The position numbers and the translations under genes were made by a program. A stretch of 64,000 bases of DNA from Deltaproteobacteria bacterium (GTDB lineage Bacteria; Myxococcota_A; UBA9160; SZUA-336): assembly GCA_031396695.1 (NCBI GenBank), contig JANNLG010000016.1, forward strand, positions 54,494 through 118,493, written 5' to 3'. This document shows, piece after piece, positions 20,585 to 52,468 of this stretch (within the stretch, counting starts at the first letter, position 1; each line of letters begins with the position of its first letter). A model generated the notes under the pieces. It ran no database searches. It was given only the letters and a program-made list of their open reading frames with translations, and had not been told where the DNA came from.

Positions 20585-20660
20585 TCCCCGATAGCTCAGT
20601 TGGTAGAGCGGGTGGCTGTTAACCACTAGGTCGGCGGTTCAAGTCCGTCTCGGGGAGCCA
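20585..20660 (+). tRNA. tRNA-Asn (anticodon GTT)
   Basis: 76 nt with CCA: 7-bp acceptor stem TCCCCGA/TCGGGGA, D-arm GCTCAGTTGGTAGAGC, anticodon loop CTGTTAA (GTT), T-arm GGTTCAAGTCC. Closely resembles canonical bacterial tRNA-Asn. Confidence 0.85.
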
Positions 20661-36579: not shown

Positions 36580-37068
36580 ATGAATGCCTGGCTCGCCAGC
36601 CGCGCCGCCGCGATTTTCGTGAGCGCGTGCGCGTGCGCCTGTCTCGGCTCGTACTCGCGCGCGCTCGAAGAGACGCGCGCGGGCCTGCTCGGACTCGACG
36701 GCCGCGCGCTGCGCGCGTGTCTCGGCGTGCCGACCGACTTCACCGTCGACGGGGACTTCGAGCAGCAGACCTACCGCTTCGAGCGCGACGACGACTTCGG
36801 CGGACTGGAACCGCCCGGCGGAATCGGCGGCGTCGTGCTCGGCGGGCGCGGACCGACCGATCGTGGCTACGAGCCCGGCGGGTTTCCGAGCGACGAGCCC
36901 GACCAGTCGTTCTGCCAGCTCGACTTCGAGCTCACCCAGGGCCGCGTGTCGCGCGTCTCCGCGCAGGGACGCACGCGCGAGGGCATGAACGCGGACGGAA
37001 GCTGCTTGCTGCGCGCGGAGCCGTGCCTCGACTACGTCGACGGCGAGCCCGAGTCCGACCTGGAGTAG
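36580..37068 (+). CDS. Hypothetical lipoprotein
   Basis: Second half of the 35899..37068 ORF. ATG 36580; signal/lipobox MNAWLASRAAAIFVSACAC; Gly/Asp-rich mature part. No family recognised. Confidence 0.45.
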   Translation: MNAWLASRAAAIFVSACACACLGSYSRALEETRAGLLGLDGRALRACLGVPTDFTVDGDFEQQTYRFERDDDFGGLEPPGGIGGVVLGGRGPTDRGYEPGGFPSDEPDQSFCQLDFELTQGRVSRVSAQGRTREGMNADGSCLLRAEPCLDYVDGEPESDLE

Positions 37069-38087
37069 GCGCGCGCGCTGCGCGCGATCGCGTCGGCGAG
37101 CGCGGAAGCGCCGATCAGACCCACGACCAGCGAAGCCGGGTTCGCGAGCCAGGCCGTGCACAGCTCGCGTACGCGCACGCTGCCGGGCCGCTCGCCGACG
37201 AGTGTGGTCTCGAGCTCCACGAGCTCCGCTTGCGCGGCGATCCAGTCGCCGCGCAGCCGAACGCGCGCGAGACGACCGCCCGCGTCGAGCGCCACGTGCG
37301 CTTCGAGAGCGCCGATCGGCGTAGCGAGCGCGCCGGCGCAGCTGAGCTCGGCGAGCTCGGCCTCGACCAGCGGCGGGCGCGCGTCCGCTTCGAAGAGCCG
37401 CGCTTCGTCGCTGGTGAGCGGCGTGTCGTCGAGTGTCAGCTCGAACTTGGCAGCGAATCCGGCGCAGAGCGCGCTCGCGAGCGGCTCGAACTCCGGCGTC
37501 GGCACGCGCTCGCGCGCGAGCGAGCTCGCGGCCGGAGCCAACGGCAGCCCCGGCCAGCTCGGCTCGCGTTCCTCCGTGGTGTAGGGTGCGCCGACGCCGA
37601 GCACGGCCTGGAACAGCAGCACGCCGCTCGGTTCGCGCGAGAGCGACACGTACGCGAGTCGCCGGCCGTTCGCCGACACGAAGTCCCGCCCCGGGTAGCT
37701 CGCAGGTAGACCGAGCCGCGAGAGGCCCGCGAGCAGGCCGCGCACCAGCCGGTTCAAGAGCCTCGGGCCCGTCAGCGAGCCGGCTTCCGGGAACCACGCC
37801 CGCGGCGAGGGCAGAAGCGCGCACAGCGAGACGACTCCGTCACCGTAGCGTGTAGAGCGGCCGCCGCTCAGCCTGCGCACTTCGTGCTTCGCGAGCGAGC
37901 TTCCCGCTCGCTGAAGGCGCCCGAGCGAGGCCGCCTCGCCGGTGAGCTCCGCGACCACCAGCGCGGCGCTGCCAGGCCGTCGCGCCAGGCCCGCCACCAG
38001 CTCGAGCTCGCGCTCGGGCGACACACGCGCCAGACGGATCACGCGTACGCAGCTTCGCGCTGCGGATTCCGCCCCGTGATCGCTCAT
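37032..38087 (-). CDS. Lipoate-protein ligase / BPL-LPL family protein
   Basis: RRLSGGRSTRYGDGVVSLCALLP and GRDFVSANGRRLAYVSLSREPSGVLLFQAVLGV match the LplA/LipB catalytic-domain pattern (R.SGGG.V.HD.G...GRND...G.KI.G.A...LHHG.LL). Confidence 0.55.
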   Translation of the reverse strand: MSDHGAESAARSCVRVIRLARVSPERELELVAGLARRPGSAALVVAELTGEAASLGRLQRAGSSLAKHEVRRLSGGRSTRYGDGVVSLCALLPSPRAWFPEAGSLTGPRLLNRLVRGLLAGLSRLGLPASYPGRDFVSANGRRLAYVSLSREPSGVLLFQAVLGVGAPYTTEEREPSWPGLPLAPAASSLARERVPTPEFEPLASALCAGFAAKFELTLDDTPLTSDEARLFEADARPPLVEAELAELSCAGALATPIGALEAHVALDAGGRLARVRLRGDWIAAQAELVELETTLVGERPGSVRVRELCTAWLANPASLVVGLIGASALADAIARSARAYSRSDSGSPST

Positions 38088-38258: not shown

Positions 38259-39248
38259 TTGGGGATCCGCGTCACTGCGCGGAACTGGATCGCGCGCTGC
38301 GCGCTGGCCGCTCTCTGCTTGCTCGCCGCCTCCGACGCGTTCGCGCTCGGCACGCCCGCGGGTACGGTCGTCACCAACACGGCGACCGTCACGTACGTGG
38401 TCGGCGCGAGCGCGTACACGCAGAGCGCGAACTCGGCTTTCACGGTCGACGAGCGCGTCGACGTCGTCGTCACCTGGCAGGACGCGGCGCCGGTAGCGGT
38501 CGCACCCGCGGACGTCGATCGGCTGCTCACGTTCCTGCTCACGAACGCGGGCAACGGCAACGAGGCGTTCGCGCTGGTGGTCGACGCGCTCGTGCTCGGC
38601 GACCAGTTCGATCCGACCAACGCGCGAGTCTACATCGACAGCAACGCTTCGGGCGTCTACGAGCCCGGCGTCGATCCGCTCTACGTGGCCGGCGTGAACG
38701 ATCCGCTGCTCGCCGCGGACGCCTCGCGGCTCGTGTTCGTGCTCGCCGACATCCCCCCGGCGACCCTGAACGGCGAGCGCGGCGACGCGGAGCTCGAGGC
38801 GACCTCGCTCAGCGGCGGCGTCACGGGCACGATCGTCGCGGGCGCCGGCGACGGCGGCACCGATGCGGTGATCGGCGGCGGCACTAGCGCCGTGATCGGC
38901 AGCTACCTCGTCTCGGATCTGTTCGTCTCGATCGCGAAGACCGCGGTCGTGACGGATCTCGGCGGCGGCGCCACGCCCGCGCCTGGCTCGACCATCACCT
39001 ACACGCTGGTCGTCACCCCGAACGGCACCGGCACGCTCGCGAACGTGGTGATCACGGACGCCTTGCCACCGTTCACCAGCTACGTCGCGGGCTCGCTGAC
39101 GCTCGACGCCGTCTCGCTCACCGACGCCGTCGACGGCGACGCGGGCGACTTCGGCGGCACCACCGCGAATCAAGTCACCGTCGCGCTAGGGAACGTGGCC
39201 GGCGGATCTCTCCCCCAGACAATCACGTTCGCAGTCACGATCGACTAG
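38259..39248 (+). CDS. Secreted DUF11 ('conserved repeat domain') protein
   Basis: TTG start (ORF track); signal peptide ARCALAALCLLAASDAFA; GTVVTNTATVTYVV motif; Thr/Val/Gly/Asp-rich beta-repeat composition. Confidence 0.55.
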   Translation: MGIRVTARNWIARCALAALCLLAASDAFALGTPAGTVVTNTATVTYVVGASAYTQSANSAFTVDERVDVVVTWQDAAPVAVAPADVDRLLTFLLTNAGNGNEAFALVVDALVLGDQFDPTNARVYIDSNASGVYEPGVDPLYVAGVNDPLLAADASRLVFVLADIPPATLNGERGDAELEATSLSGGVTGTIVAGAGDGGTDAVIGGGTSAVIGSYLVSDLFVSIAKTAVVTDLGGGATPAPGSTITYTLVVTPNGTGTLANVVITDALPPFTSYVAGSLTLDAVSLTDAVDGDAGDFGGTTANQVTVALGNVAGGSLPQTITFAVTID

Positions 39249-39259
39249 GAGGGAATGCC

Positions 39260-39754
39260 TTGAAACATGTAGTTGCTTTGGGTCTTTCGATTCTGCTCTT
39301 CGCTGAGAGCGCGCACGCGGTCGAAACCGCGGGAGACACCGCAGTCGAGATCAAGATCACGGCCGAGATAGAGGTCACGGTGAAGACCGCGGACGGGCGC
39401 GAGGAAGTGAAGCGCATGCCCGCGGCCAAGGTTCCGCCCGGCACGGCGGTGATCTACACGCTCAATGCGAAGAACACCAGTGCGGCGCCCGTGGCCGACG
39501 TGGTGATGACGGACCCGATCCCGGCCGAGATGGAGTACGTCGACGGCTCGGTCAGCGCCGCGGATGCGCGCGTCACGTTTTCCGTCGACGGCGGCAAGAG
39601 CTTCGCGACCAAGGAGTCCCTGAAGGTGAAGGGCGAGGACGGCGCGATGCGCGCGGCGCTCCCCGCCGACTTCACGCACATCCGTTGGCAGCTCGAGAAG
39701 CCGCTCGCGCCGGGCGAAGTCCGCGCGGTCAGCTTCCGTGCGCGCGTGGAGTGA
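39260..39754 (+). CDS. Small secreted DUF11-like protein
   Basis: Signal peptide MKHVVALGLSILLFAESAHA; PGTAVIYTLNAKNTS... single repeat domain. Confidence 0.55.
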   Translation: MKHVVALGLSILLFAESAHAVETAGDTAVEIKITAEIEVTVKTADGREEVKRMPAAKVPPGTAVIYTLNAKNTSAAPVADVVMTDPIPAEMEYVDGSVSAADARVTFSVDGGKSFATKESLKVKGEDGAMRAALPADFTHIRWQLEKPLAPGEVRAVSFRARVE

Positions 39755-39852: not shown

Positions 39853-40920
39853 ATGTTGAGGCATGACTTGAAACGATTGGCGAGTTCGCTCGCCGCCGCT
39901 GCGCTCTTGTGGAGCGCGGCGGACACCGCATCGGCCGTGGGCGCCGACGCGGGCATCACCGTCTCGAACACGGCATCGGTGGTCTACACCGTGAACGCCG
40001 TGCTTCAGCCGGCAGTGGCGAGCAACGCGGCCGACTTCGTCGTCGACCGCCTGGTCGATCTGACGGTGACGGCGATCGGGGTGACCTACACCTCCGTGAC
40101 GCCGGCGACGAACGGGGCGTTCCTGTTCTCGGTCGCAAACATCAGCAACGCCACCCTCGGGTTCAACCTGAGCGCGGCCAACAACGCGACGGATCCGTTC
40201 GGCGGCACCGACAACTTCGACCCGACTACGCTCACGGCGGTCGTCGATACGGGTGTCATCGGAACCTACGAGCCGGGCACCGACGTGGCGACCACGATGG
40301 ACACGGTCGCCGAGGACGGAACCTTCGGCGTGTGGATCGTCGCGGCGATCCCGGGCGGTCAGGGCAACCTCGACATCGCGGCGGTCACGCTGACCGCGAC
40401 GGCGCGCGAGCCGGGTATCGGCGGCGCGGCGCTCACCGAGGAAGTCAACCCGGAGAACCCGCTGGTCATGGAGACCGTGTTCGGCGACGGCGCGGGTGAC
40501 ACCGACGCGGTGCAGGACGCGGCCTTCTCGGACAGCGGCGCCTATCAGGTGGCTTCTGCGGACGTCACGATCACCAAGACCGAGACGCTGCTCAGCGACC
40601 CGATCAACGGTGCCGCGCCGAACGCACGCCACATTCCGGGTGCACTCGTCGAGTACGTGGTGACGGTCACCAACGACGCGGGCTCCGCGTTCCCCGCGAC
40701 CACGCTCACCATCAGCGACGTGCTGCCGGGTGACGTCACGTTCGCGCCGGATACGTACGGGATTGGCTCGGGCATCGACCTCGACGGCGCGCCGCAGACC
40801 AACGCGGCGGACTCGCCGACCGACGAGAGCTCGTTCGCAGCCGGAACGGTGACCGTGACCGTGCCGTCACTCGCAGCGGGCGCCTCTGCGGTCATCACCT
40901 TCCAGGTGACGGTGAACTAG
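39853..40920 (+). CDS. Secreted DUF11 repeat protein
   Basis: ATG 39853 preceded by AAGGAGAAGG; signal peptide LAAAALLWSAADTASA; GITVSNTASVVYTV motif; paralogous to 38259..39248. Confidence 0.55.
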   Translation: MLRHDLKRLASSLAAAALLWSAADTASAVGADAGITVSNTASVVYTVNAVLQPAVASNAADFVVDRLVDLTVTAIGVTYTSVTPATNGAFLFSVANISNATLGFNLSAANNATDPFGGTDNFDPTTLTAVVDTGVIGTYEPGTDVATTMDTVAEDGTFGVWIVAAIPGGQGNLDIAAVTLTATAREPGIGGAALTEEVNPENPLVMETVFGDGAGDTDAVQDAAFSDSGAYQVASADVTITKTETLLSDPINGAAPNARHIPGALVEYVVTVTNDAGSAFPATTLTISDVLPGDVTFAPDTYGIGSGIDLDGAPQTNAADSPTDESSFAAGTVTVTVPSLAAGASAVITFQVTVN

Positions 40921-41138
40921 CCACCGGCTAGCTCTCGATGGTGAGCCCCCTCCCCCCAGTGCCGCGGCACGTCGAGTGCCCGCGCGCCGGCCTACATGGC
41001 GGCGCGACGGGAGACTTGCGTTCGCGCACCGGGAACGGGCGCTCACCGGACCGCGACCATGCGGTTCGCACGTTGTGCCTCAACGAACCGGCTGCGACGG
41101 GAAAGCCCCGCCGCAGCCGGTTCCGCGAGGCGCTGGTG

Positions 41139-44100
41139 ATGCTCGCGCTCACCGTGCTTCTGTTTCCGTTCAGCGCACGCGCGCAGACACCCGCGGGCAC
41201 GCCGATCCCGAACACGGGCTACGCGACCTACGACATCGGCGCCACCACCGGAATCGTCCGGCCGTCGAACACGCTGGTCATCACGACCGCCGCGTTCGGA
41301 ACCAGTTCGAGCCTGGAGTTCATGCGCTATGCGCCCGGCGCTCCCGGCTCGATCACCTACGCCGTCTCGCCCACGCAGTGCTTCACGGGCGGATCGTTCA
41401 GCGCCCTGCCCGCGCCCACCGCGTACGGCGGCGGCGTGATCAACCTGGCCAACGTCGAGCTCGAGCTCACGTCGAGCTACCACCCGGGTGAGCCGGTCTT
41501 CGTGCGGCTGGTCGACGCGGATCAGAACCTGAATCCCGCGCTCGCCGAATCGATCCTGGTCACGCTCGCGACACCGAGCGTCGCGGACGTCGAGCAGCTG
41601 CAGCTCTTCGAGACTGGCGTGAACACGGGCATCTTCGTCGGCTACGTGCCCACGGCGGCGCCACCGGCGCCGGCGAACGACTGCGTGCTCGCCGCTCCGT
41701 CGGGTCAGACCGTCACCGGCAGCTACACCGATGCGAGTAACGCCGCGGACACCGATACCGACAGCGCGCTGATCGACCCCGAGAGCCGGGTCTTCGACAG
41801 CACGAACGGCTCGCCGGTCGACGGCGCGACCGTGACCCTGATCGACGACGCCACCGGACTGCCCGCTGCGGGCATCCTCGGCGACGACGGTCTCTCCGCC
41901 TTCCCCGCCACGCTCACCAGCGGCGGCTCGGTCACCGATGGCGGCGGGCAGATCTACAACTTCGGCCCGGGCGGCTACCGCTACCCGGTCGTTCCCGCGG
42001 GCAGCTATCGACTGCAGGTGACGCCGCCCGCCGCGTACACGTTCCCGAGCGGTGTGGCCGACGCCACGCTGCAGACCTTGCCCGGCGCACCGTTCGCGCT
42101 CGCGCTCGGCTCGCGCGGCGAAGTCTTCGCCGTGCCGGTCGGTCCGACCTTCCAGCTCGATCTGCCGGTCGACACCGCGTCGGGCTTCGGCTTCATCTCG
42201 ATCGACGCCAGCCGCGACGTGGTCTCGCTCGGCGAGCACTTCCAGTTCGACGTGCGCGTCGAAAACCCGGGCGTGCTCGGAGCGCCGCTCGGCGTCGACG
42301 TGACCGTCGTATTGCCGCTCGGCATCCGCTTCCTGCCCGGCAGCGTGCGCATCGACGACGGCAAGCAGCCCGATCCGGTGATCTCGCCGGACGGCCGCAC
42401 CCTGACCTGGACGCTACCCGCGAGCGCGCTCCCCGTCGTGACACACATCCGGTTCACCGTGAAGGTCGGGCCGAGCGCCGAGATCGGCCTCACGCGCACC
42501 ACCGCGCGCGCGCAGGCGCTGGGCGGAACGAGCACCGAGGACGCCGTCGCCACGGTGCGGGTCGTCGAGGACCTGGGCGCGAACAACTCCTACATCCTCG
42601 GCCGCGTTTCCGAGGGCGCCTGCGACACCGACGACTTCGGCGGCAAGGGCGTTTCGGGCGTGCGGGTGTACCTCGAGGACGGCTCGTTCTCGATCAGCGA
42701 CTCGAACGGCTACTACCACTTCGCCGGCGTCGTTCCCGGCGCGCACGTGGTGCAGATGGACGTGCAGAGCCTGCCCGGCTTCTACGAGCCGCTGCCGTGC
42801 GCGAAGGACGAAGGCCAGGCCTTCGCCGGCCGGCCGTTCTCGCAGTTCGTCGAGATGCAGGGCGGAACGATGTGGCGCAGCGACTTCCGTGTGCAGATGC
42901 GCGCGCGCGCGCAGGGCGGCATCAGCCAGCGGCTCGAGAGCCAGCTCGTCGGCGACACCATCCACTATCAGCTCGCGCTGCGCGGCAACGGCGTGGCCGT
43001 GCGCAATGCGCGTGCGATGGTGATGCTGCCCGAGGGCGTCCAGTTCGTGCCCGGCAGCACGCGCGACGCGGGCGCGCCGATGGCGGATCCCGAGTTCAAG
43101 GACGGCGTGCTCGTCTACCGGCTCGGCGAACACACCGAAGACAACTGGACGCTGGATCTCACGTTCGATGCGAAGCCCACGGGCCCGAGCGAGCGCCAGC
43201 TCGAGACGTCGTCCGTGGTGATGTTCGAGACGCCGGTCGAGAAGATCGGCAGGACGCCCGTCGCGAAGACGTTCCTTTCCGGCGAGTCGAGCTCGGGCAG
43301 CGGCATCCAGGTGGTCGAGACGCTCGGCCTGCGGCCGGGTGAGGATTGGAACTCGGTCACGACGCCCGCACCCGACGTCACGCCCGTGAAGCCCAGGGTG
43401 TTCAACAAGGCCTGGCTCGAGCAGGCGCAGCCGGGCTTTGCGTGGCTGTCGCCCGAGCCGGGCTTCGCCGCCGCGATCGCGAGCGTGAACATCGCCATTC
43501 AGCACGCGCCCGGCACCACACTCGAGCTGACGCAAAACGGCGTCGCGGTGCCCAAGTTCAACTTCGAGGGCGAGTTCTCCAACAACGCCAAGACCGTCTC
43601 GCTGTCGCGCTGGCGCGGCGTGGATCTGGTCGACGGCGAGAACGCCTTCGTGGTGCGCGCGCTCGACGCGCAGGGCAACGAAGTCGAGCGCTTCGAGCGC
43701 GGGCTTCACTTCGCCGGTCCGCCGTTCCGTGCCGAGCTCGTGCCCGAGCTCTCCAAGCTGGTGGCCGATGGCACCACGCCGCCGGTGATCGCCGTGCGCT
43801 TCACCGACGAGGACGACAAGCCCGCGCGCGAAGGACAGGTCGGCACGTTCCAGGTCGAGGCACCGTACCGCCCGAACCTCGAGCCCGCGCTGCGCGAGCT
43901 GAAGCGTCAGGCGGGCCAGCCGCCCGAGTTGCCGAGCTACGCGATCGGTCAGGACGGCATCGCGCTGATCGAGCTCGCGCCCACCACCACTTCCGGACGC
44001 GTGAACCTCCGCTTCGCGCTGGCCGGCAACCACGAGAAGAAGCTCCACCCCTGGCTCGAGGCGACCGCGCGCGAGTGGGTGCTGGTCGGCCTGACCGGTG

Positions 44101-46640
44101 GCACGCTCATGTACGACTCGGTCTCGGAGCACAGCGAGAGTCTCGTGCCGGGCGGCGTCGAGGACGGCTACGACCTCGACCGCGGCACCACCGTGTTCGC
44201 CAAGGGCCGCGTGAAGGGCTCGTGGCTGCTCACCGCCGCCTACGATTCGCGCCGCGAGTCGTACGAGTCGTCGAACGACATCGACCGCGCCGCGCTCGAA
44301 GGCGGTCTCGATCCGAACCAGTACTACACACTGTACGGTGACGAGACCACGCAGGGTTTCGAAGCGCCGAGCCAGCGCAAGCTGTACGTGAAGCTCGAGC
44401 GCAAGCAGTTCTACGCGCTGTTCGGCGACTTCCAGACCGGCCTCACGGTCACCGAACTGTCGCGCTACAACCGCAGCCTGAACGGTTTCCACACCGAGTA
44501 CGACGGCGACTACGTGAGCTTGAACGCGTTCGGCACCGACACCAGCCAGGCCTTCGTGCAGGACGAGATCCGCGGCGACGGCACGTCGGGCCTGTACCGG
44601 CTCTCGCGCCGCGAGATCGTGCTTAACAGCGAGACGGTATCGATCGAGATCCGCAATCGCTTCCACGGCGAGCAGGTGATCTCGACCGAGAACCAGGTGC
44701 GCTGGGTCGACTACAACATCGACTACAGCTCGGGCACGATCTTCTTCAAGCGGCCGATCCCGAGTACGGGCGAGGGCTTCAACCCCGTCTTCATCGTGGT
44801 GGAGTACGAGGCCGACGACGACTCGGACGAGGAGATCAACGGCGGCGGACGCGCGGCCGTGAAGCTGTTCGACGACAACGTCGAGCTCGGCACCTCGCTG
44901 ATCCACGAGGGCACGGTCGGGCAGACCTCGAGCCTGTACGGCAGCGATCTGCGCATCGACCTCGACGCCTCCACCAGCCTGCGCGGCGAGTACGCGATGA
45001 CGCGCTCGGCGCTGCTCGACTCGGACCTGGATCCAAACGGTGGCGCGTGGCTCGCGGAGCTTTCGCGCCGCGATCGCGATCTCGACTCGCGCGTGTACTG
45101 GCGCGAGCAGCGGCCGGGCTTCGGGCTCGGCCAGCAGAGCGCGAGCGAAACGAACATGCAGCAACTCGGCCTGGACGCGCGCTATCGCCTCTCCGACTCG
45201 CTCTCGCTCTCGGGCGAGGCGTTCCGCCAGGTCGACAGCGCCTCCGACGCGCGCCGCGATCTGTTCCAGGGCCGCGTCGATCACCACGAGGGACCGGTCA
45301 GCGCCTACGGCGGCCTGCGCTTCGCGCACGACGTGTTCTCGGACGGTGAGGACGCGTCGTCGCCGCAGGCGCTCGGCGGGGGCAGCTACACCCTGTACCA
45401 GAACCGACTGAAGCTGCGCGCCGACACGGAAGTGACGCTCTCGGGCGACGAGAGCCTCGACTTCCCGACGCGCTTCCTGGTCGGCGCGGACTTCGAGCTG
45501 CTGCCCGAGCTGACCGTGTTCGGCGAGGAGGAGTTCACGCTCGCCAGCGAGCGCAGCACCGCTTCCACGCGCGTGGGCTTGCGCACGAGCCCGTGGTCCG
45601 GCGGCCAGGCCACCGCGGCGATCGGCCAGCGCAGTCAGCAAGACAGCGCGCGCCTGTTCGGCACGCTCGGCCTGTTGCAGACCTATCAGCTCAGCGACGC
45701 GCTTTCGTTCGACTTCGCGGTCGACAACTCCGTGACACTCTCCGGTGACGACACGGCCGCGACCTCGATCTCGCCGTTCGCGCCCAACCAGCCGGTGAAC
45801 TTCGGCCTGGCCGGCAACGCGCAGGGCGACGACTTCACCTCGGTCTCCGTGGGCACCACCTACGCACAGGAGCTGTGGGCCGCGAACCTGCGCCTGGAGA
45901 CGCGGATCGGCAACGTGCAGGACAAGTGGAGCATCACCGCGGGCGCCTACCGCGAGCTCGCCGAGGGCATCGGCGTGGCCGTGCGCGCCGAATTCTTCGA
46001 CGCCAGCGGCTCGAGCTCCTCGCTCACCACCGGACCGGACGCGACCTCCGGCCCGGTCTACAGCTCCGACGGCAGCTTGCGCCCGAACACCGCCTACGAC
46101 GGCATCGAGTCGCTCGGCAAGCTGCGCGTGTCGGCGGTGTACCGTCCGATCGGCGGCCGCTACACGCTGCTCGAGTCACTCGAGCTGCGCAACGAGCGCC
46201 TGGACGACGCCGTCTTCCAGAGCAGCGCCACGCGCATCGTCAACAACATGAACCTGAACATCAAGCTCGATCGCAAGACGCAGGCTTCGCTGCAGTACGG
46301 CGCGAAGTACCTGCTCGAAGAGATCGACGGCGAGAACCTGCGCGGCTACACCGACGTGACGGGCCTCGAGCTGCGCCGCGCTCTGTGGGGGAGCTGGGAC
46401 GTCGGCGGCCGCGTGGGCATGCGCCACTCCTGGAGCGACGCCAACATCCAGGAGCTGTACGGCGTGTCGCTCGGATACATCCTGATGAAGAACATGTGGG
46501 TGAGCGCGGGCTACAACTGGGAAGGCTACCGAGACTCGGACTTCTCGGAAGGCGAGTGGACGAGCCGCGGGCCGTACATCTCGTTCCGGTACAAGTTCGA
46601 TCAGGAGACGGTGAAGGAGCTGCTCGACTGGGCGGAATAG
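41139..46640 (+). CDS. Giant (1834 aa) surface protein: signal peptide, DUF11-like repeats, carboxypeptidase-regulatory/SdrD-B-like segment, large C-terminal beta-rich domain
   Basis: Start taken at the ATG giving MLALTVLLFPFSARAQTP; upstream in-frame codons from 40938 lack signal character. Contains GTPIPNTGYATYDIGA DUF11 motif and SDSNGYYHFAGVVPG (CarboxypepD_reg-like). The C-terminal ~900 aa is Tyr/Gly/Ser/Asp-rich with alternating hydrophobics, consistent with a beta-barrel or beta-sandwich. Confidence 0.6.
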   Translation: MLALTVLLFPFSARAQTPAGTPIPNTGYATYDIGATTGIVRPSNTLVITTAAFGTSSSLEFMRYAPGAPGSITYAVSPTQCFTGGSFSALPAPTAYGGGVINLANVELELTSSYHPGEPVFVRLVDADQNLNPALAESILVTLATPSVADVEQLQLFETGVNTGIFVGYVPTAAPPAPANDCVLAAPSGQTVTGSYTDASNAADTDTDSALIDPESRVFDSTNGSPVDGATVTLIDDATGLPAAGILGDDGLSAFPATLTSGGSVTDGGGQIYNFGPGGYRYPVVPAGSYRLQVTPPAAYTFPSGVADATLQTLPGAPFALALGSRGEVFAVPVGPTFQLDLPVDTASGFGFISIDASRDVVSLGEHFQFDVRVENPGVLGAPLGVDVTVVLPLGIRFLPGSVRIDDGKQPDPVISPDGRTLTWTLPASALPVVTHIRFTVKVGPSAEIGLTRTTARAQALGGTSTEDAVATVRVVEDLGANNSYILGRVSEGACDTDDFGGKGVSGVRVYLEDGSFSISDSNGYYHFAGVVPGAHVVQMDVQSLPGFYEPLPCAKDEGQAFAGRPFSQFVEMQGGTMWRSDFRVQMRARAQGGISQRLESQLVGDTIHYQLALRGNGVAVRNARAMVMLPEGVQFVPGSTRDAGAPMADPEFKDGVLVYRLGEHTEDNWTLDLTFDAKPTGPSERQLETSSVVMFETPVEKIGRTPVAKTFLSGESSSGSGIQVVETLGLRPGEDWNSVTTPAPDVTPVKPRVFNKAWLEQAQPGFAWLSPEPGFAAAIASVNIAIQHAPGTTLELTQNGVAVPKFNFEGEFSNNAKTVSLSRWRGVDLVDGENAFVVRALDAQGNEVERFERGLHFAGPPFRAELVPELSKLVADGTTPPVIAVRFTDEDDKPAREGQVGTFQVEAPYRPNLEPALRELKRQAGQPPELPSYAIGQDGIALIELAPTTTSGRVNLRFALAGNHEKKLHPWLEATAREWVLVGLTGGTLMYDSVSEHSESLVPGGVEDGYDLDRGTTVFAKGRVKGSWLLTAAYDSRRESYESSNDIDRAALEGGLDPNQYYTLYGDETTQGFEAPSQRKLYVKLERKQFYALFGDFQTGLTVTELSRYNRSLNGFHTEYDGDYVSLNAFGTDTSQAFVQDEIRGDGTSGLYRLSRREIVLNSETVSIEIRNRFHGEQVISTENQVRWVDYNIDYSSGTIFFKRPIPSTGEGFNPVFIVVEYEADDDSDEEINGGGRAAVKLFDDNVELGTSLIHEGTVGQTSSLYGSDLRIDLDASTSLRGEYAMTRSALLDSDLDPNGGAWLAELSRRDRDLDSRVYWREQRPGFGLGQQSASETNMQQLGLDARYRLSDSLSLSGEAFRQVDSASDARRDLFQGRVDHHEGPVSAYGGLRFAHDVFSDGEDASSPQALGGGSYTLYQNRLKLRADTEVTLSGDESLDFPTRFLVGADFELLPELTVFGEEEFTLASERSTASTRVGLRTSPWSGGQATAAIGQRSQQDSARLFGTLGLLQTYQLSDALSFDFAVDNSVTLSGDDTAATSISPFAPNQPVNFGLAGNAQGDDFTSVSVGTTYAQELWAANLRLETRIGNVQDKWSITAGAYRELAEGIGVAVRAEFFDASGSSSSLTTGPDATSGPVYSSDGSLRPNTAYDGIESLGKLRVSAVYRPIGGRYTLLESLELRNERLDDAVFQSSATRIVNNMNLNIKLDRKTQASLQYGAKYLLEEIDGENLRGYTDVTGLELRRALWGSWDVGGRVGMRHSWSDANIQELYGVSLGYILMKNMWVSAGYNWEGYRDSDFSEGEWTSRGPYISFRYKFDQETVKELLDWAE

Positions 46641-46665: not shown

Positions 46666-48018
46666 CTAGTGGCCTCGCAGGCTGGATTGGGAGATCTGGC
46701 GCGCGAGCTTCTTCTCGTCGGTCGGGATGGATACCGCGTTCCACTGCTCGCTGCGTACGGAGTCCTGGTTGCTCCAGTCGATCAGTGCGCTGCCGACGCC
46801 GTCGATCACGCGGACCGGGCGCGTCGGGTCGTCGGCCCAACGGGGATAGTCCTCGCGGTCTTCGCTCCAGCGTCCGACGAAGTAGCCGAGTCCGCCTTGC
46901 GTCGAGCCGTCGCGGTAGGCGGCGTAGTAGAGCGGGAAGAGCGTCTGCAGGTCCAGGTACCAGACGTAGCGGCGTACGCCGTCGCCGAACGAGCCTTGCT
47001 TCAGGCGTCCTTCGATCACGAGCGCACGGCGTAGCTCCCAGCGGTCGTTCGCGAACGACACGCCCGCGGGACCGAAGCCGCGCGACTTGTCCTCGGGGTA
47101 GATCGGCGCGCGCGCGTTGATCGGCGCGAGCACGTCGCGCACGCCGACGAGCCTCCAGTCATGGAGCTGCGGTGACTCGCCGTGCAAGAACAGGCCGTCG
47201 CCGATGCTCGCGTCCACGAGACAGCCGGTGAGCGGCGACTCGGAGTCGGGAGCGGTCGCCCGACTCACCTTGCGCGCGGCTCCGTTCCAGACGAAGAAAT
47301 CCGGCAGCCGGTTGCCACTGTCGTACTGCCGGAAGGCGCACTCTCCGCCGGTGTCCAGGTTGCGCGACGCGCCGCCCGCCGCCCACAGCGCGCGGGTCGA
47401 GGACGGAAAGCGGAAGTCCTCGCTCTCGCGATCCGCGCGCCCAACGAGCGGCACGAAGAAGTAGTCGCCGGTGAATCGCTGCTGCAGATCCTTCGCGAGC
47501 AGGCTGATCCGATACTCGCCGAAGCTGCCGCCCGCCTGGTAGCGCGAGACCCAGTTCCACGCCCAGCGCAGCGCAGCCTGTGGATCGTTCGGATCGATCG
47601 AGTCGGGCGCGAACGGCAGACCCGCGCGGTGGTTCTCGAGCTCGCCCTCGGGCGTGAGCCGCGCCTCGCCGCGGAAACGCTCCGTCACCTTCGCGAAGAA
47701 CTCCGGCGGCGCGTAGTCGCGATAGCACGGGCCGATCTCCAGATGCATCCCGTCGTAGAAGAAGCGCTCGCGGTTGGCCCACAGCTCCTCGGGCACGTAG
47801 CCCTGCAGCGCTTCGGTCTTCTTCTCGTCGAGCACCTCGCCCACGCGAAACGGCGGCGGCACCGCGTCCGCGCCGGGACGCACGAGCGCGCCGGTGGTCT
47901 CACACGACCCCTCCGCGGGAATCGCCCATGGATCGGCCGGCTCGGCCGCGATCGACCCGGCCGAAGAGACGAGCGCGATCCAACACACGAGCGTCGCTCC
48001 GCGCCTGCATTCGAGCAT
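46666..48018 (-). CDS. Secreted hypothetical protein (possibly DUF1329/LolA-like)
   Basis: ATG 48018 with GGAGG RBS; signal peptide TLVCWIALVSSAGSIAA; 450 aa. Family assignment is uncertain. The rest of the 46666..48582 ORF is shadow. Confidence 0.5.
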   Translation of the reverse strand: MLECRRGATLVCWIALVSSAGSIAAEPADPWAIPAEGSCETTGALVRPGADAVPPPFRVGEVLDEKKTEALQGYVPEELWANRERFFYDGMHLEIGPCYRDYAPPEFFAKVTERFRGEARLTPEGELENHRAGLPFAPDSIDPNDPQAALRWAWNWVSRYQAGGSFGEYRISLLAKDLQQRFTGDYFFVPLVGRADRESEDFRFPSSTRALWAAGGASRNLDTGGECAFRQYDSGNRLPDFFVWNGAARKVSRATAPDSESPLTGCLVDASIGDGLFLHGESPQLHDWRLVGVRDVLAPINARAPIYPEDKSRGFGPAGVSFANDRWELRRALVIEGRLKQGSFGDGVRRYVWYLDLQTLFPLYYAAYRDGSTQGGLGYFVGRWSEDREDYPRWADDPTRPVRVIDGVGSALIDWSNQDSVRSEQWNAVSIPTDEKKLARQISQSSLRGH

Positions 48019-48066: not shown

Positions 48067-49281
48067 ATGACGACACCCTCCGATCCGTTTCTCGGCGCGA
48101 ACCCGCTCGATCCCGCGTTCCGCGCCGATCCGCACCCGGCGCTGAAGCGCCTGCGCGAGACCCACCCCGTACACGAGACGGTGATCGGGCTGTGGCGGCT
48201 CTCGCGCTACGCGGACTGCGTTCGGCTGCTGCGCGACGCGCCGACGGGCGTGCGCCTCTCCGACGGCACGCGGCCGGGGCAGGACCGCATCCCCGCCGCG
48301 CTCGGCTCGTTCGGGCAATTCATGCTGCAGCAGGATCCGCCCGCGCACACGCGCCTGCGGCGGCTGGTGTCGAAGGCGTTCACGCCGCGCGCGATCGAGC
48401 GCCTGCGCGCGCACGTGCAGAAGCTCGCCGACTCGCTCGTCGAGCGCGCGCTCGAGCGCGGCGAACTCGACGCGATCGCCGATCTCGCGCTGCCCGTTCC
48501 GTCGACCGTGATCTGCGAGATGATGGGCGTCCCGCTCGCCGACCGCGAGCGCTTCACGCAGTGGACCGCGCACTCGACCCACCTGCTGGCCGCGTTCGCC
48601 GCGCCACCCGACGTGCTCGAGCGCGGCGTCGCCGCCTCGCAGGCGCTCGCGAGCTACTTCGAGGCGCTGATCGCGGAGCGCCGCAAGTCACTCGGCGACG
48701 ATCTGCTCTCGAACTTGATCCGCGCCGAGGAGGCCGGGGATCGGCTGTCGCCGCAAGAGCTGCTCTCGCAGTCGATCGGCCTGTTGATCGCGGGCTTCGA
48801 GACCACGATCGGCCTGATCGGGAACGGCCTGCTCCAGCTCCTGCGCCACCCCGCCGAGCTCGCCAAGCTGCGCGCGAACCCGGGCCTGATCGGATCCACC
48901 GTCGAGGAATGCCTGCGCTTCGACGGCCCGATCCTGCTCACCGTGCGCATCACCCAAGACGAAGTTCGCTTCGGCGAGCAGGTGATCCCGAAGGACCGCA
49001 TGGTGATGGCGCTGCTCGCCGCAGCGAATCGCGATCCCGAGGTGTTCCCCGACCCCGAGCGCTTCGACATCGAGCGCACGCCCAACGAGCACATGGCCTT
49101 CGGCGGCGGCACTCACTTCTGCCTGGGCGCGCACCTGGCGCGCATGGAGGCGCAGGCCGCGATTGGCGCGCTGGTGCGCCGCTCGTCGAAGCTCGAGCTC
49201 GTGTCGGACCAGCTCGAGTGGGGTCAGTCGCTGTTCCGCGTGCTCGGCAAGCTGCCGCTGCGGGTCACGCCGGCGCGCTGA
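48067..49281 (+). CDS. Cytochrome P450
   Basis: Heme-binding loop FGGGTHFCLGAHLAR, EXXR (ECLRFDGP), I-helix AGFETT. Confidence 0.85.
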   Translation: MTTPSDPFLGANPLDPAFRADPHPALKRLRETHPVHETVIGLWRLSRYADCVRLLRDAPTGVRLSDGTRPGQDRIPAALGSFGQFMLQQDPPAHTRLRRLVSKAFTPRAIERLRAHVQKLADSLVERALERGELDAIADLALPVPSTVICEMMGVPLADRERFTQWTAHSTHLLAAFAAPPDVLERGVAASQALASYFEALIAERRKSLGDDLLSNLIRAEEAGDRLSPQELLSQSIGLLIAGFETTIGLIGNGLLQLLRHPAELAKLRANPGLIGSTVEECLRFDGPILLTVRITQDEVRFGEQVIPKDRMVMALLAAANRDPEVFPDPERFDIERTPNEHMAFGGGTHFCLGAHLARMEAQAAIGALVRRSSKLELVSDQLEWGQSLFRVLGKLPLRVTPAR

Positions 49282-51166
49282 CGAAGCCGGCGGACGCGAG
49301 CTCCGTGCGCAGCGCGGAGCCGGGGGCGAGCAGGCGGATCAGCGCCTGCACGGCGGGGCGCTCGAGCCGCCGCTTCGGCACCACGAAATCGTAGTGCTCG
49401 AAGCGCAGCGGGCGAAAGCGCAGTCCCGACTCGCGCGCGACGCTCTCGATCGTCACACCCCAGTCGGCCCGGCCTTGCGCGACCGCCGCCGCGACCGCGT
49501 TGTGCGAACGCGGCTCGTAAGCGAAGCCGTCGGGACGCCGACCGCCGAGCAGACCGTCGATCAGCACGCGCGTGCCGCTGCCGCGATTGCGGTTCACCAT
49601 ACGCAAGCTCGTGTCGGCGACGAGCGCCTCCGTGGGCCTGCGCTCGTCCTCGCGCGTCACCACGCCCTGCATGCGCAGGTAGCCGGGCACCAGGGCGAGA
49701 GACTCGTCGAGGAACGGCGTGTTGTAGGTGTCGGTGGACGGATCGAGCAGGTGCGCGGGCGCGACGTCGCACTCGCCGCGGCGCGCGGCCTCGATCCCGC
49801 CCTGCGAGCCGACCGCGAGCAGCTTCACCGAGAAGCCCTCCGCGTGCAGCGCGCGCGCGATCCGATCCAGGCCCGTGCAGTGGCTGCCGATCACGACCAG
49901 GTCCGCCGGCTCGAGCGAGGGGCCGAGCAGAATCACCTCGACTTCCGTGTCCGCCTCGACGATCTCGAGGTTGCGACCCAGCCGCACGAAGCCGTCGGCG
50001 CGGCTCCAGGTCGTGACGCTGCCGCTGCCCTTTCCCATCGGGTACGCGCCGAGCTCGCCGCCTTCGCCCCGCACCAGCCCGACCAGCAGATACTCGAGCC
50101 GCCCGCGCTCGGTGTGGGTGCGCAGCGCGAGCTTCGCGCGCACCGCCTCGGAGCGCAGCGGCGGCGCGCCCGCCAGCCGGCGCAGCACCGGCGCGACGAA
50201 TTCGTGGAACGTGAACACCGCCGAGGTCGGGAAGCCGGGCAGGATCACGACGGGCTTTCCGTGGTGCGCGGCCAGGCAGATCGGCTTGCCGGGCTTGAGC
50301 GCCACGCCGTGCACGAGGATGCCCGGCTCGAGCTCCGCGACCACGCGGTACGAGAGGTCACCCTCGCCTTTCGACGTGCCGCCCGACAGAACCACCGCGT
50401 CGCACGCGGCGAGGCCCCGCTCGAGCGCGCGCCGCAGCGCGGATTCCTCGTCGCGGAACGCGCCGAAGAAGACCGGCTCGCCGCCGAGCTCGCGCACGGC
50501 GTCGGTGATCATGCGCCCGTTCGAATCGAACACGAGCCCCGGGCGCATCGCGTCGCCCGGGTCGATGATCTCGTCGCCGGTCGAGATCACCGCGACGCGC
50601 GGCTTGCGCACCACCGGAATGCGCGCGGCGCCGATCGCCGCCAGCACGCCGGTCTCGCGAGAGGAGAGGCGCTGGCCCGCGAACAGCACGGTCTCGCCCA
50701 GGCCGATATCGGTGCCCGCGAACGAGACCGCCGCGCCGGGCACGCGCGCCGCGCGCACCACCACGATCCGGTCGCCGTCTTCGACGTCGGTCATCTCCAC
50801 GGGCACGACCGCGTCGGCGCCGCGCGGCAGCATGCCGCCGGTCGCGATCGGCGTCGCCGTGCCGGGCTCCACACTGAGTCGCGGGTGGACACCGGTGGGG
50901 ATCGACTCGTCGTTTCGGCGCAGGCGCACCGGCTCGAGCTCGCTCGCGCCGTAGGTGTCCTGCGCGCGCACCGCGAAGCCGTCCATGTTCGAGCGGTCGA
51001 AGCTCGGCACGTCGACGGGCGCGCGCACTTCGCCGGCGAGCACGCGGTCGAGCGCGATCTCGAGCGGGATCTCCTCGCTGTCGAGCCGCGCGAGCGCGAG
51101 CGCGGCGTGCCAGCGCTGCTCGGCGACGTCGCGGTCGAGCACCTCGAGAAACTGCTCCTGCTTCAC
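49265..51166 (-). CDS. moeA: Molybdopterin molybdo/tungsto-transferase MoeA fused to C-terminal PBP-like domain
   Basis: MoeA N-terminal and MoCF-binding domains (VLSGGTSKGEGD) followed by a ~230-aa periplasmic-binding-protein-like domain. GTG start overlaps the upstream moeA stop (GTGA). Confidence 0.7.
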   Translation of the reverse strand: MKQEQFLEVLDRDVAEQRWHAALALARLDSEEIPLEIALDRVLAGEVRAPVDVPSFDRSNMDGFAVRAQDTYGASELEPVRLRRNDESIPTGVHPRLSVEPGTATPIATGGMLPRGADAVVPVEMTDVEDGDRIVVVRAARVPGAAVSFAGTDIGLGETVLFAGQRLSSRETGVLAAIGAARIPVVRKPRVAVISTGDEIIDPGDAMRPGLVFDSNGRMITDAVRELGGEPVFFGAFRDEESALRRALERGLAACDAVVLSGGTSKGEGDLSYRVVAELEPGILVHGVALKPGKPICLAAHHGKPVVILPGFPTSAVFTFHEFVAPVLRRLAGAPPLRSEAVRAKLALRTHTERGRLEYLLVGLVRGEGGELGAYPMGKGSGSVTTWSRADGFVRLGRNLEIVEADTEVEVILLGPSLEPADLVVIGSHCTGLDRIARALHAEGFSVKLLAVGSQGGIEAARRGECDVAPAHLLDPSTDTYNTPFLDESLALVPGYLRMQGVVTREDERRPTEALVADTSLRMVNRNRGSGTRVLIDGLLGGRRPDGFAYEPRSHNAVAAAVAQGRADWGVTIESVARESGLRFRPLRFEHYDFVVPKRRLERPAVQALIRLLAPGSALRTELASAGFVSAPA

Positions 51167-52434
51167 GGCCGCACCGCGCTGCGCAGCGCCGCGCCCTCGC
51201 GCGAATCTTCGTCGTAGAGCAGAACCTCGACCTCGGCGCCCTCGGGCATGCCCTCGAGCTCCCGCGGCACGATCACGGCGCCGTCGGCGCGCACCGTCGA
51301 CGACAGGATCGACGCGCCCGCGGTGGCGAGCGGCGCCACGCGCTCGCCTTCGAAGGCGACGCGCACGTAGTCCGTGCGGCCCACCTCGGAGCTGAGCTTG
51401 CGCGCAAGCACCGCCCGCACGCGCCTGTGCGGCCAGGCACGCGTGCGGCCGCCGAGCGCGCGAATCGAGGGCCCGGCGAAGAACTCGTACGCGCACAGGC
51501 AGCTGACGGGATTGCCCGGCAAGAGGAATACCAGCGCGGCGCCGATCCGGCCGCCGCCCGCCGGGCTCGAGGGGCGCATCGAGACGCCGTGGAAGAGCAG
51601 CTCACCGTGTTCTGCGAGCAGCCGCGGCGCGTGGTCTTCGGCGCCGACGCTCGAACCGCCGGAGACCAGCACGACGTCGGCGTCGCCGGCCGTCAGCGCG
51701 GCGGCGATCAGCTCAGGACGGTCCGGGATCAGCTCGAACGGCAACAGCGCCCCGCCGTCGCGCGCGACCAGCGCGCGCAGCACCACCGAGTTCGAGTCGA
51801 CGATCTTGACGCCGTTCGGTGTAGAGCCGGGCGGAAGCAGCTCGTCGCCGGTGACGACGAGCTTCACGCGCGGCCGGCGCACGCAGGCGACGGAGCCCTG
51901 GCCGATCGACGCGATCAAGCCTGCGTCCTGCGGCCGGAGCCGGCGGCCCGCCCGGAGCACGAGCTCGCCGGCGCGGATGTCCTCGCCGATGGCGCCGATG
52001 TTCTTGCGCGGCGCGACCGGCTCGTGCAGGACGACGCGCCCGCCGCGCTCCTCGCAGACCTCCGCCTTGACGACCGCGTCGGCGCCGGCGGGGACCGGCG
52101 CGCCCGTCATGATGCGCACCGCCTCGTCCTTGCCCACGCGCCCGGCGAACGCGCGGCCGGGAAGGGTCTCGCCGATCAGCGCGAACTCGAGCCCCGCGTA
52201 GTCGGAGGCGCCGAACGTGTCCTCGCCGCGGAGCGCGTAGCCGTCCATGGCCGAGCGCGCGAAGCTCGGCACGTCCACGCGCGAGACGACACCCTCAGCG
52301 AGCACGCGACCGACGCAGTCGAGCACGCCGACGGGCTCCGCGGCAAGACTCGCGCACAGCCCCGCGAGCAGGCGATCGACCTCCTCGACGTCCTTCCGCT
52401 CCGCGAATCCCCGCATCCGCACGTCGCGAGTCAT
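51163..52434 (-). CDS. moeA: Molybdopterin molybdotransferase MoeA
   Basis: SAMDGYAL, VLVSGGSSVGAEDH, LPGNPVS motifs; 423 aa. Confidence 0.8.
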   Translation of the reverse strand: MTRDVRMRGFAERKDVEEVDRLLAGLCASLAAEPVGVLDCVGRVLAEGVVSRVDVPSFARSAMDGYALRGEDTFGASDYAGLEFALIGETLPGRAFAGRVGKDEAVRIMTGAPVPAGADAVVKAEVCEERGGRVVLHEPVAPRKNIGAIGEDIRAGELVLRAGRRLRPQDAGLIASIGQGSVACVRRPRVKLVVTGDELLPPGSTPNGVKIVDSNSVVLRALVARDGGALLPFELIPDRPELIAAALTAGDADVVLVSGGSSVGAEDHAPRLLAEHGELLFHGVSMRPSSPAGGGRIGAALVFLLPGNPVSCLCAYEFFAGPSIRALGGRTRAWPHRRVRAVLARKLSSEVGRTDYVRVAFEGERVAPLATAGASILSSTVRADGAVIVPRELEGMPEGAEVEVLLYDEDSREGAALRSAVRP

Positions 52435-52468
52435 CGCGGAACCCGAGCCGCCTTCGGTGCTGTCCCTT

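Follow-up and report, generated by a model that had tools for sequence, protein, structure and literature searches.

What is the function of a predicted secreted protein of 1833 residues whose long C-terminal region could not be assigned to any family? This question was raised by a gene, here called D, in a 64,000-nt stretch of DNA from Deltaproteobacteria bacterium (GenBank assembly GCA_031396695.1, contig JANNLG010000016.1, positions 54,494 to 118,493 of the forward strand), hereafter the window. A preliminary description, made from the letters of the DNA, had proposed a signal peptide, repeat modules and possibly an unusually large outer-membrane barrel. We found that D is the fourth and last gene of a strongly conserved operon, A-B-C-D, in which it follows three secreted DUF11/CLIPPER proteins, and the C-terminal ~850 residues of D are predicted to form a very large outer-membrane β-barrel. 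With little more than even confidence, we lean towards reading A-B-C-D as a conserved system of four proteins, with D as its outer-membrane component, in which truncated CLIPPER domains are completed in trans to give an anchored fibre.

First, the C-terminal part of D was examined. Its last ~1100 residues received no assignment in sequence and profile searches of Pfam, NCBIfam and the PDB, in agreement with the preliminary description, which had left the last ~900 residues unassigned. The structure of residues 720-1833 was predicted with AlphaFold2 (AF2) from the window sequence and 41 homologues, giving a predicted local distance difference test score (pLDDT) of 75.1 and a predicted template modelling score (pTM) of 0.68. 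The core of the model is an array of 32 antiparallel amphipathic strands of 10-17 residues, the last of which reads GPYISFRYKF. The even-numbered connections between these strands consist of 2-6 residues, and the odd-numbered ones reach 10, 15, 27 and 32 residues; since short turns alternate with long loops in this manner, as in outer-membrane proteins, both ends of the array were placed in the periplasm. Most of the 32 predicted strands showed one hydrophobic and one polar face, so that the alternating pattern described earlier is real in them; the richness in Tyr, Gly, Ser, Asp and Asn that had been described along with it hardly distinguishes the region from the N-terminal half. As for the C-terminal aromatic signature that had been suggested as a check, GPYISFRYKF is conserved and resembles a β-signal, but 13 residues separate it from the C-terminus, and next to it comes a conserved helix (DQETVKELLDWAE; family consensus at the tail, FRxKFDQxTxxExL) that strand parity would place in the periplasm.

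When the C-terminal model was searched with Foldseek, SlpA (30 strands) and SprA (36 strands) ranked first, with TM-scores of only 0.16-0.23. Almost all of the top structural matches obtained by two methods were membrane β-barrels, at TM-scores of 0.1-0.27 and high root-mean-square deviations (rmsd). The very large β-barrel that had been proposed is thus predicted by the AF2 model, by the strand pattern and by Foldseek, and the AF2 structure prediction did not show the soluble solenoid that had been named as the contrary outcome. Ahead of the core, the model contains eight shorter and less amphipathic strands, followed by a small, plug-like inserted β domain that was delimited by DSSP and by invariant alignment columns. 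The eight short strands may add to the barrel wall or belong to a plug in its lumen; the predicted barrel would have 32 clearly amphipathic strands, or 40 if these strands and the inserted domain widen it rather than plug it. This part of D (residues 978-1215) holds the top-conserved motifs of the family, namely YYTLYGD and FYALFGDF in the short strands, IRGDGTSGLY, DYxIDYxxGTxFF and NPVFIVVEYE. The most conserved motif, IRGDGTSGLYRL, has several invariant Gly, Tyr and Leu positions, contains RGD and begins with I1145 just before the inserted domain; DYNIDYSSGTIFF and then NPVFIVVEYE follow downstream. Two Ig-like β-sandwich domains (AF2 pLDDT ~88-91) precede these strands. The second is invasin/Big_1-like by its sequence pattern (LVADGTTPPVIAVRFTDEDDKPA), and the region gave weak profile matches to Ig-like domains of glycosidases. 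Because the barrel starts on the periplasmic side by strand parity, both domains are probably periplasmic according to the model.

Subsequently, the genes around D were compared among loci. Hidden Markov models (HMMs) of A, B, C and D were run on 80 further loci, of which the 59 with enough upstream DNA (at least 4.5 kb) were counted. The order A-B-C-D was observed in 51 of the 59, and four more had CBC-D or ACBC-D. A second genome of Myxococcota contained the same four genes, alike in order and size, as did those of a Porticoccaceae, a Pseudomonadaceae and a Desulfatibacillum, and the D loci span Myxococcota, Desulfuromonadales, Desulfobacterales, Nitrospirota, Lentisphaeria and Gamma-, Beta- and Zetaproteobacteria. 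A and C are homologous to each other. A matched TIGR01451 with 44.6 bits, and B matched DUF11 with 27.9 bits and TIGR01451 with 43.7 bits.

The ends of these proteins showed a complementary pattern. All of A, B and C end in ...[TV][IV]xFx[VA]x[IVL]x immediately before the stop codon, and the CLIPPER-like domain halts there, before its last two strands: in A and B it ends after the F strand (...QTITFAVTID and ...AVSFRARVE, respectively), and C ends in ...AVITFQVTVN. The DUF11 alignment of C reaches the last residue of the protein at profile position 84 of 114; in homologues of D, intact DUF11 domains extend to positions 94-98 and have the Asn at about 92. Conversely, at their mature N-termini A, C and D, unlike B, carry G-T-x-A-G-T-x-[VI]-x-N-T-A-x-[VA]-x-[YF] ... 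S-N-x-x-x-x-V in all loci examined; the last two DUF11/CLIPPER strands have this sequence pattern, including the isopeptide Asn. In gene C this hairpin reads GADAGITVSNTASVVYTV...ASN. In D, N25 of the hairpin was invariant among 38 homologues (38/38), and T21, I23 and S43 were conserved in at least 90% of them. The corresponding chemistry is known from a CLIPPER (DUF11, PF01345) adhesin of Acinetobacter silvestris, B9T28_05395 (PDB 9IFR), which has an OmpA-like domain in the same polypeptide and in which an intramolecular isopeptide bond joins Lys of the first strand to Asn under catalysis by Asp (Lys715, Asp748 and Asn806; PMC12617251). CLIPPER domains of the D family reach 9IFR by a profile match (E = 2.7e-5) and belong to the same domain family with Lys-Asp-Asn chemistry. 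In the known CLIPPER adhesins, however, the domains are complete and the bond is intramolecular, and neither a barrel nor split domains have been described. The triad that lies within one domain there is lost in the window D, whereas A and C keep Lys and Asp but lack the Asn strand in the domain.

Furthermore, the conservation of the three residues differed among the four proteins in a manner that fits pairing between them. C has the acceptor Lys in 69/69 loci, Asp in 65/69 (Glu in the other 4) and the donor Asn in 66/69. In A the acceptor Lys was found in 55/55 and Asp in 54/55, and the donor Asn in 40/55, with Ser, Gly or Thr in 13 and no aligned residue in the other 2. B has no donor hairpin and no conserved acceptor Lys, the site being occupied by Glu, and at the acceptor Asp site it has Asn in 51 and Asp in 10 of 63. 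D has no acceptor Lys or Asp, and its donor Asn is the invariant N25. There are consequently three donors (A, C and D) for three acceptors (A, B and C); two acceptors have Lys and two donors an essentially invariant Asn, and the one acceptor without Lys (B) is matched by the one donor with a variable Asn (A). This correspondence fits the trans pairing B<-A, A<-C and C<-D. Since Lys and Asp of A are invariant where its Asn is lost, the acceptor of A does not appear to be served by its own N-terminus, and cis-complementation of A was disfavoured on the same ground. Ser or Gly replaced the donor Asn of A, with the acceptor Lys and Asp kept, in ten loci of Steroidobacteraceae type (L042, L045, L048, L053, L058, L059, L064, L074, L075 and L078), which suggests that the joint made by the donor of A would be non-covalent. 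The C-terminal residue (39246..39248 for A and 40915..40917 for C in the window; loci L001-L085) of A and C was nearly always Asn, Asp or Gln: it was Asn in 27 and Asp in 19 of 55 A proteins, and Asn in 29, Gln in 20 and Asp in 6 of 69 C proteins; in B it was Lys, Glu or Gln. This conserved Asn/Asp/Gln residue of A and C could take part in the joint.

From the computed barrel, the operon conservation and the motifs with their conservation, we infer an assembly of the following kind. The hairpin of one protein would complete the truncated CLIPPER domain of another by donor-strand complementation, and where the acceptor is A or C, which have Lys and Asp, a Lys-Asn isopeptide bond would form spontaneously between the two molecules and lock the joint. 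B, as an acceptor only, would be the distal cap or tip; A and C, as both donors and acceptors, would form the shaft; and D, as a donor only, would sit at the proximal end and attach the fibre to the outer membrane. A or C might also homopolymerise. The wide barrel of D may provide the passage across the outer membrane. Several topologies can be envisaged: the fibre base may be held at the periplasmic mouth and the fibre threaded through the barrel, as in an usher; the stalk of D itself may thread its own barrel as folded domains; or assembly may be periplasmic. We regard the barrel prediction and the operon conservation as well supported by computation, and the covalent-fibre mechanism as a well-motivated hypothesis.

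Precedents for the separate parts of this scheme exist. In Clostridium perfringens BsaA, an N-terminal donor strand completes the next subunit, and an Asn-Lys isopeptide bond forms with an acidic catalyst (N35-E56-K74, confirmed by mutagenesis; 10.1101/2024.11.04.621531). A report on thread filaments of the archaeon Sulfolobus acidocaldarius likewise describes donor-strand complementation together with isopeptide bonds (PMC9715654). The conservation pattern of the A-B-C-D proteins fits the BsaA arrangement, with the donor Asn on an N-terminal strand and Lys and an acid in the acceptor, and a similar bond may form; the BsaA and thread fibres, however, have a TasA/camelysin fold rather than CLIPPER and occur in monoderm or archaeal hosts that have no outer membrane and no barrel component. 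Chaperone-usher pili (FimD/PapC with FimA/PapA) offer a precedent for an acceptor-only tip and a plugged barrel. Their operons encode a PapD-like chaperone, which is absent from A-B-C-D. The usher barrel has 24 strands with its plug between strands 6 and 7, whereas that of D is predicted to have 32-40 with a β domain inserted after about the eighth, and D itself, unlike an usher, has a stalk resembling pilins and a hairpin proposed as donor. Unlike those of chaperone-usher pili, the subunits here are of CLIPPER/CnaA type; their Lys/Asp/Asn triad hints at covalent locking, and their donor is apparently a two-strand hairpin. By analogy, the system would work most like a chaperone-usher pilus with BsaA-type locking, but it is a member of neither family.

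Several results weigh against this scheme. When real donors were appended to the acceptors, the DUF11 score changed by -0.1 to +8.2 bits, compared with -1.5 to +4.6 bits for shuffled donors; shuffled donors also gave similar profile coverage and did nearly as well for C acceptors, and the real donors extended the coverage to position ~98. With a home-made HMM of the D internal CLIPPER the gains were -0.5 to +2.5 bits for real donors and -0.8 to +0.6 bits for shuffles (37 loci). The score test was not specific and is not counted in favour of the scheme; a phmmer search of the PDB with an acceptor-donor chimera did not reach 9IFR and was uninformative. The internal CLIPPER of the window D has no Lys/Asp/Asn triad; the triad has been lost in this Myxococcota clade, and the family consensus keeps K, D and N. 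In the AF2 monomer the N-terminal hairpin of D is folded as four strands (pLDDT ~82), so the hairpin may simply belong to the first domain of D, and the motif common to A, C and D could equally mark a homologous N-terminal domain. No chaperone-like gene that would block premature polymerisation was found in the operon, which holds only A, B, C and D. The strand count is that of the predicted secondary structure. Finally, many relatives of D contain an OmpA-like domain (45/68 D open reading frames (ORFs) of fetched genome loci; 127/237 database homologues longer than 1500 residues), which begins ~10 residues after the last N-terminal stalk module and lies directly before the linker and the conserved C-terminal block, at a median of 1092 residues from the C-terminus. 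Because this domain, of the peptidoglycan-binding type, follows right after the stalk, at least the proximal part of the stalk, which the preliminary description had supposed to be extracellular, would be periplasmic, and the fibre may be outside, threaded through the barrel or periplasmic.

The OmpA-like domain could indicate instead that D is an envelope connector or a large gated pore of SlpA/OmpM/OmpA-like kind, and that the A/B/C chain is periplasmic or cell-wall-associated. The best Foldseek match, SlpA of Deinococcus, is a peptidoglycan-tethered barrel in which, as in the D family, a cell-wall-binding domain is joined to a giant barrel, and the strand parity that places the barrel start and the Ig-like domains in the periplasm is in line with such a role. 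However, the pilin/cadherin stalks of 700-2000 residues are hard to fit into the periplasm, surface proteins are where modules of the CLIPPER, CnaB and cadherin types are known (PMC12617251), and a Pfam search detected no OmpA-like domain (PF00691) in the window D. Moreover, a tether would not need a barrel of 32-40 strands. A protein-conducting pore with plug partners is known in SprA, the translocon of the secretion system T9SS (type IX); neither SprA nor SlpA shows sequence similarity to D, both come from other phyla, and D has no T9SS or S-layer homology (SLH) context. We consider the connector unlikely, although it is the alternative that survives best.

Next in order is the possibility, also unlikely in our judgment, that D is a self-sufficient autotransporter-like adhesin whose barrel only anchors and exports its own stalk, with A, B and C as independent, co-expressed DUF11 adhesins. 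Autotransporters (type Va, and type Ve such as intimin/invasin) combine, like D, a barrel anchor and an Ig-like stalk in one polypeptide; D has its stalk at the N-terminus and its barrel at the C-terminus, cadherin repeats lengthen the stalk in some relatives as they do in adhesins, and AF2 folds the hairpin within the monomer. The Big_1-like domain beside the barrel is shared with intimin/invasin, and relatives of D have, in the OmpA-like domain, a periplasmic domain of peptidoglycan-binding type that is comparable to the LysM domain of intimin. On the other hand, autotransporter barrels have 12 strands, and D shows no predicted linker helix and no match to PF03797 or to the intimin barrel; in intimin the barrel precedes the Big-domain passenger, whereas the order in D is stalk, Ig-like domains, barrel. 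The position of the OmpA-like domain, ~10 residues past the stalk in two thirds of members, also speaks against this reading. An independent adhesin would leave unexplained why A, B and C always stop before the last CLIPPER strands, why A, C and D have the Asn hairpin in common, why the acceptor Lys and Asp are invariant where no Asn strand is available in cis, and why the four-gene order is kept across phyla with three conserved partner subunits that autotransporters do not have.

It is improbable that the C-terminal region of D is a TonB-dependent-transporter-like or usher-like barrel that has diverged past sequence recognition. The structural matches indicate a generic likeness in barrel fold, but their low TM-scores and high rmsd, and a strand count far above 22 or 24, do not fit either class. 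Pfam searches at E <= 0.1 gave no match to Plug (PF07715), TonB_dep_Rec or Usher (PF00577), PDB profile searches gave none to barrels, ushers included, at E <= 1, and no TonB box was found by eye; the operon, as mentioned, has no PapD-like chaperone gene. A soluble β-solenoid or sandwich array, to which the pTM of just 0.68 and a barrel closure resting on predicted strands might point, is very improbable in view of the hairpin meander of amphipathic strands with short and long loops, the β-signal-like last strand and the membrane barrels among the top structural matches.

Covalently linked pili are regarded as a Gram-positive hallmark, with the links made by sortases, and a few monoderm and archaeal fibres reach covalent linkage by self-locking. 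Gram-negative pili are non-covalent and need a chaperone and an usher. Against this background, A-B-C-D may represent an undescribed class of Gram-negative fibre, independent of sortases and chaperones, in which donor-hairpin CLIPPER subunits are locked by Lys-Asn bonds, covalently tied to a dedicated barrel of 32-40 strands and exported through it; we put this tentative proposal somewhat below an even chance. In the literature on DUF11/CLIPPER, ushers, isopeptides, TIGR01451 and giant barrels, we found no description of the A-B-C-D operon or of the barrel family. If the proposal is true, a widespread diderm system would exist in which the subunits are locked both to one another and to an outer-membrane barrel of their own, a counterpart of the Gram-positive covalent pili in environmental diderm bacteria and a new assembly route for surface fibres. 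Its split domains would be natural ligation pairs comparable to SpyTag/SpyCatcher. The predicted barrels would by themselves constitute a new giant barrel family for the study of outer-membrane biogenesis, where one would have to ask how 32-40 strands are folded by BAM. SprA, with 36 strands, is listed as the largest known barrel in a strand-counting preprint of 2026, which also points out for SprA that the bulk predictions of the AlphaFold DB end at 1280 residues (10.64898/2026.03.07.710327). With 32-40 strands, if these are true, the barrel of D would equal or exceed SprA, and the D family has probably been missed by structure-based surveys because its members exceed 1280 residues.

The family is large. 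A HMMER search with D residues 978-1833 yielded 3109 clusters (50% identity) at E <= 1e-3, including 1122 at E <= 1e-30, and in the best 150 of the 3109 the domain lay at or near the C-terminus. Its thousands of sequence clusters belong to Proteobacteria, Myxococcota, Desulfobacterota, Nitrospirota and Lentisphaerota from soil, sediment and marine settings. With the conserved motifs as patterns, 589 D-type loci were detected in GTDB species genomes. BLASTP defined the conserved block as the final ~1110 residues, with the tail KFDQxxxxE included. D belongs to a Myxococcota metagenome-assembled genome; database entries 100% and 89% identical to it exist, the latter named Myxococcota bacterium, and relatives at 35-45% identity occurred in Steroidobacteraceae, Porticoccaceae, Pseudomonadaceae, Desulfatibacillum and many others. 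Two cultured carriers, Povalibacter uvarum DSM 26723 and Desulfatibacillum alkenivorans DSM 16219, make the fibre proposal testable.

The reading frame of D was confirmed as proposed. The ORF is open from stop to stop at 40932-46640, and its G+C content at third codon positions (GC3) of 0.92, in a window of ~70% GC, indicates that it is coding; all three peptides quoted in the preliminary description were present in the translation. The start codon is uncertain. In addition to ATG 41139, the in-frame TTG 41073 would provide a basic n-region (KPRRSRFR), and ATG 40938 is the called start in several homologues (1900 residues). Because the same predicted cleavage site, between ARA and QTP, is reached from all three, the predicted mature N-terminus is firm although the start is not. 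As had been suggested, the N-terminus (MLALTVLLFPFSARA, followed by QTPAG) is signal-peptide-like when inspected by eye, with the site at the same position across homologues. An antisense ORF within D failed the GC3 criterion and was rejected as an artefact typical of 70% GC DNA. Scans for promoters and terminators gave no signal above shuffled expectation. The coordinates of these and the other features are listed in Table 1.

Table 1 Features of the A-B-C-D locus and other genes of the window. Positions are those of the window; residues are numbered from ATG 41139 for D.
Feature	Position	Strand	Residues or length	Remark
tRNA-Asn (GTT)	20585..20660	+		
ORF divergent from gene A	37032..38087	-	351 aa	
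Gene A	38259..39248	+	329 aa	secreted; signal peptide, hairpin GTPAGTVVTNTATVTY...SAN (proposed donor), middle domain, C-terminal CLIPPER/DUF11
Gene B	39260..39754	+	164 aa	secreted; single CLIPPER-like domain
Gene C	39853..40920	+	355 aa from ATG (371 aa from GTG 39805)	signal peptide, middle domain, truncated C-terminal CLIPPER
Gene D	41139..46640	+	1833 aa + stop	
D signal peptide (predicted)	41139..41183	+	1-15	
D N-terminal hairpin	41184..41288	+	16-50	QTPAGTPIPNTGYATYDIGATTGIVRPSNTLVITTA; proposed donor, resembling the last two CLIPPER strands
D stalk	41289..43298	+	51-720	about five β-sandwich modules (AF2, Foldseek, Pfam)
D internal CLIPPER	42195..42560	+	353-474	reads ISIDASRD / VTVVLP / RTTA
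Antisense ORF (rejected)	42414..45641	-	1075 aa	
D linker	43299..43439	+	721-767	Pro-rich, disordered; pLDDT <50
D Ig-like domains (two)	43440..44063	+	768-975	
D short strands (eight)	44070..44573	+	978-1145	
D most conserved motif	44571..44606	+	1145-1156	
D inserted β domain	44574..44783	+	1146-1215	
D predicted barrel core	44784..46598	+	1216-1820	
D C-terminal helix	46599..46637	+		AF2 H1103-1113
DUF1329 protein	46666..48018	-	450 aa	convergent with D
Cytochrome P450	48067..49281	+		
MoeA/AFOR cluster	49265..54190	-	743, 423 and 573 aa	MoeA-PBP fusion, second MoeA, aldehyde:ferredoxin oxidoreductase (AFOR)

The N-terminal half of D was predicted by AF2 (residues 1-770, pLDDT 84.6) to be an all-β chain of sandwiches. 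Its modules comprise a DADQN/ETGxNTG sandwich, CnaB/prealbumin-like modules, one of which is the CarboxypepD_reg match, and two CLIPPER-like modules. The DUF11 and carboxypeptidase-regulatory-like repeats reported earlier are weak in the window copy and mostly fall below the cut-offs (CarboxypepD_reg, 28.1 bits against 32.3; DUF11, PF01345, 16.8 against 24.6; SdrD_B, also below its Pfam cut-off), with TIGR01451 just above (27.1 bits against 24), but modules of the DUF11 and CarboxypepD_reg types exceed the cut-offs in D homologues. Foldseek matched the model best to BcpA, EbpB, LrpA, SpaD, RrgB, GBS80, UafA and SdrD, so that the N-terminal half resembles the Gram-positive sortase pilins and MSCRAMM stalks and is pilin- or stalk-like. 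The cadherin repeats of some relatives are inserted after the N-terminal hairpin.

The gene convergent with D indeed encodes a DUF1329-like protein, as had been supposed (PF07044, E = 8e-19), but its proposed role as a partner of D was rejected. Although DUF1329 and DUF1302 proteins form outer-membrane pairs, D has no DUF1302 match, and the adjacency was confined to the window and to two close relatives in the Myxococcota (L006 and L008), none of the other ~57 loci showing it. In the same three loci alone, DUF1329 and a cytochrome P450 lie between D and the MoeA/AFOR cluster. In a related locus (L001) this cluster directly follows D, and the two genes therefore appear to be a lineage-specific insertion rather than partners. 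The composition of the cluster suggests a tungsten/molybdenum cofactor enzyme module.

Upstream of the operon, the ORF divergent from gene A has a coding-like GC3; it gave no match in Pfam or NCBIfam and showed no signal peptide by eye. Seven other loci (L010, L013, L017, L029, L034, L052 and L056) have an extra CLIPPER ORF of 860-1570 residues just upstream of A, which is not present in the window. Two of these ORFs match the D profile weakly, and they may encode an additional large subunit or adhesin. The tRNA-Asn gene was the sole RNA gene detected in the window with ARAGORN and Rfam.

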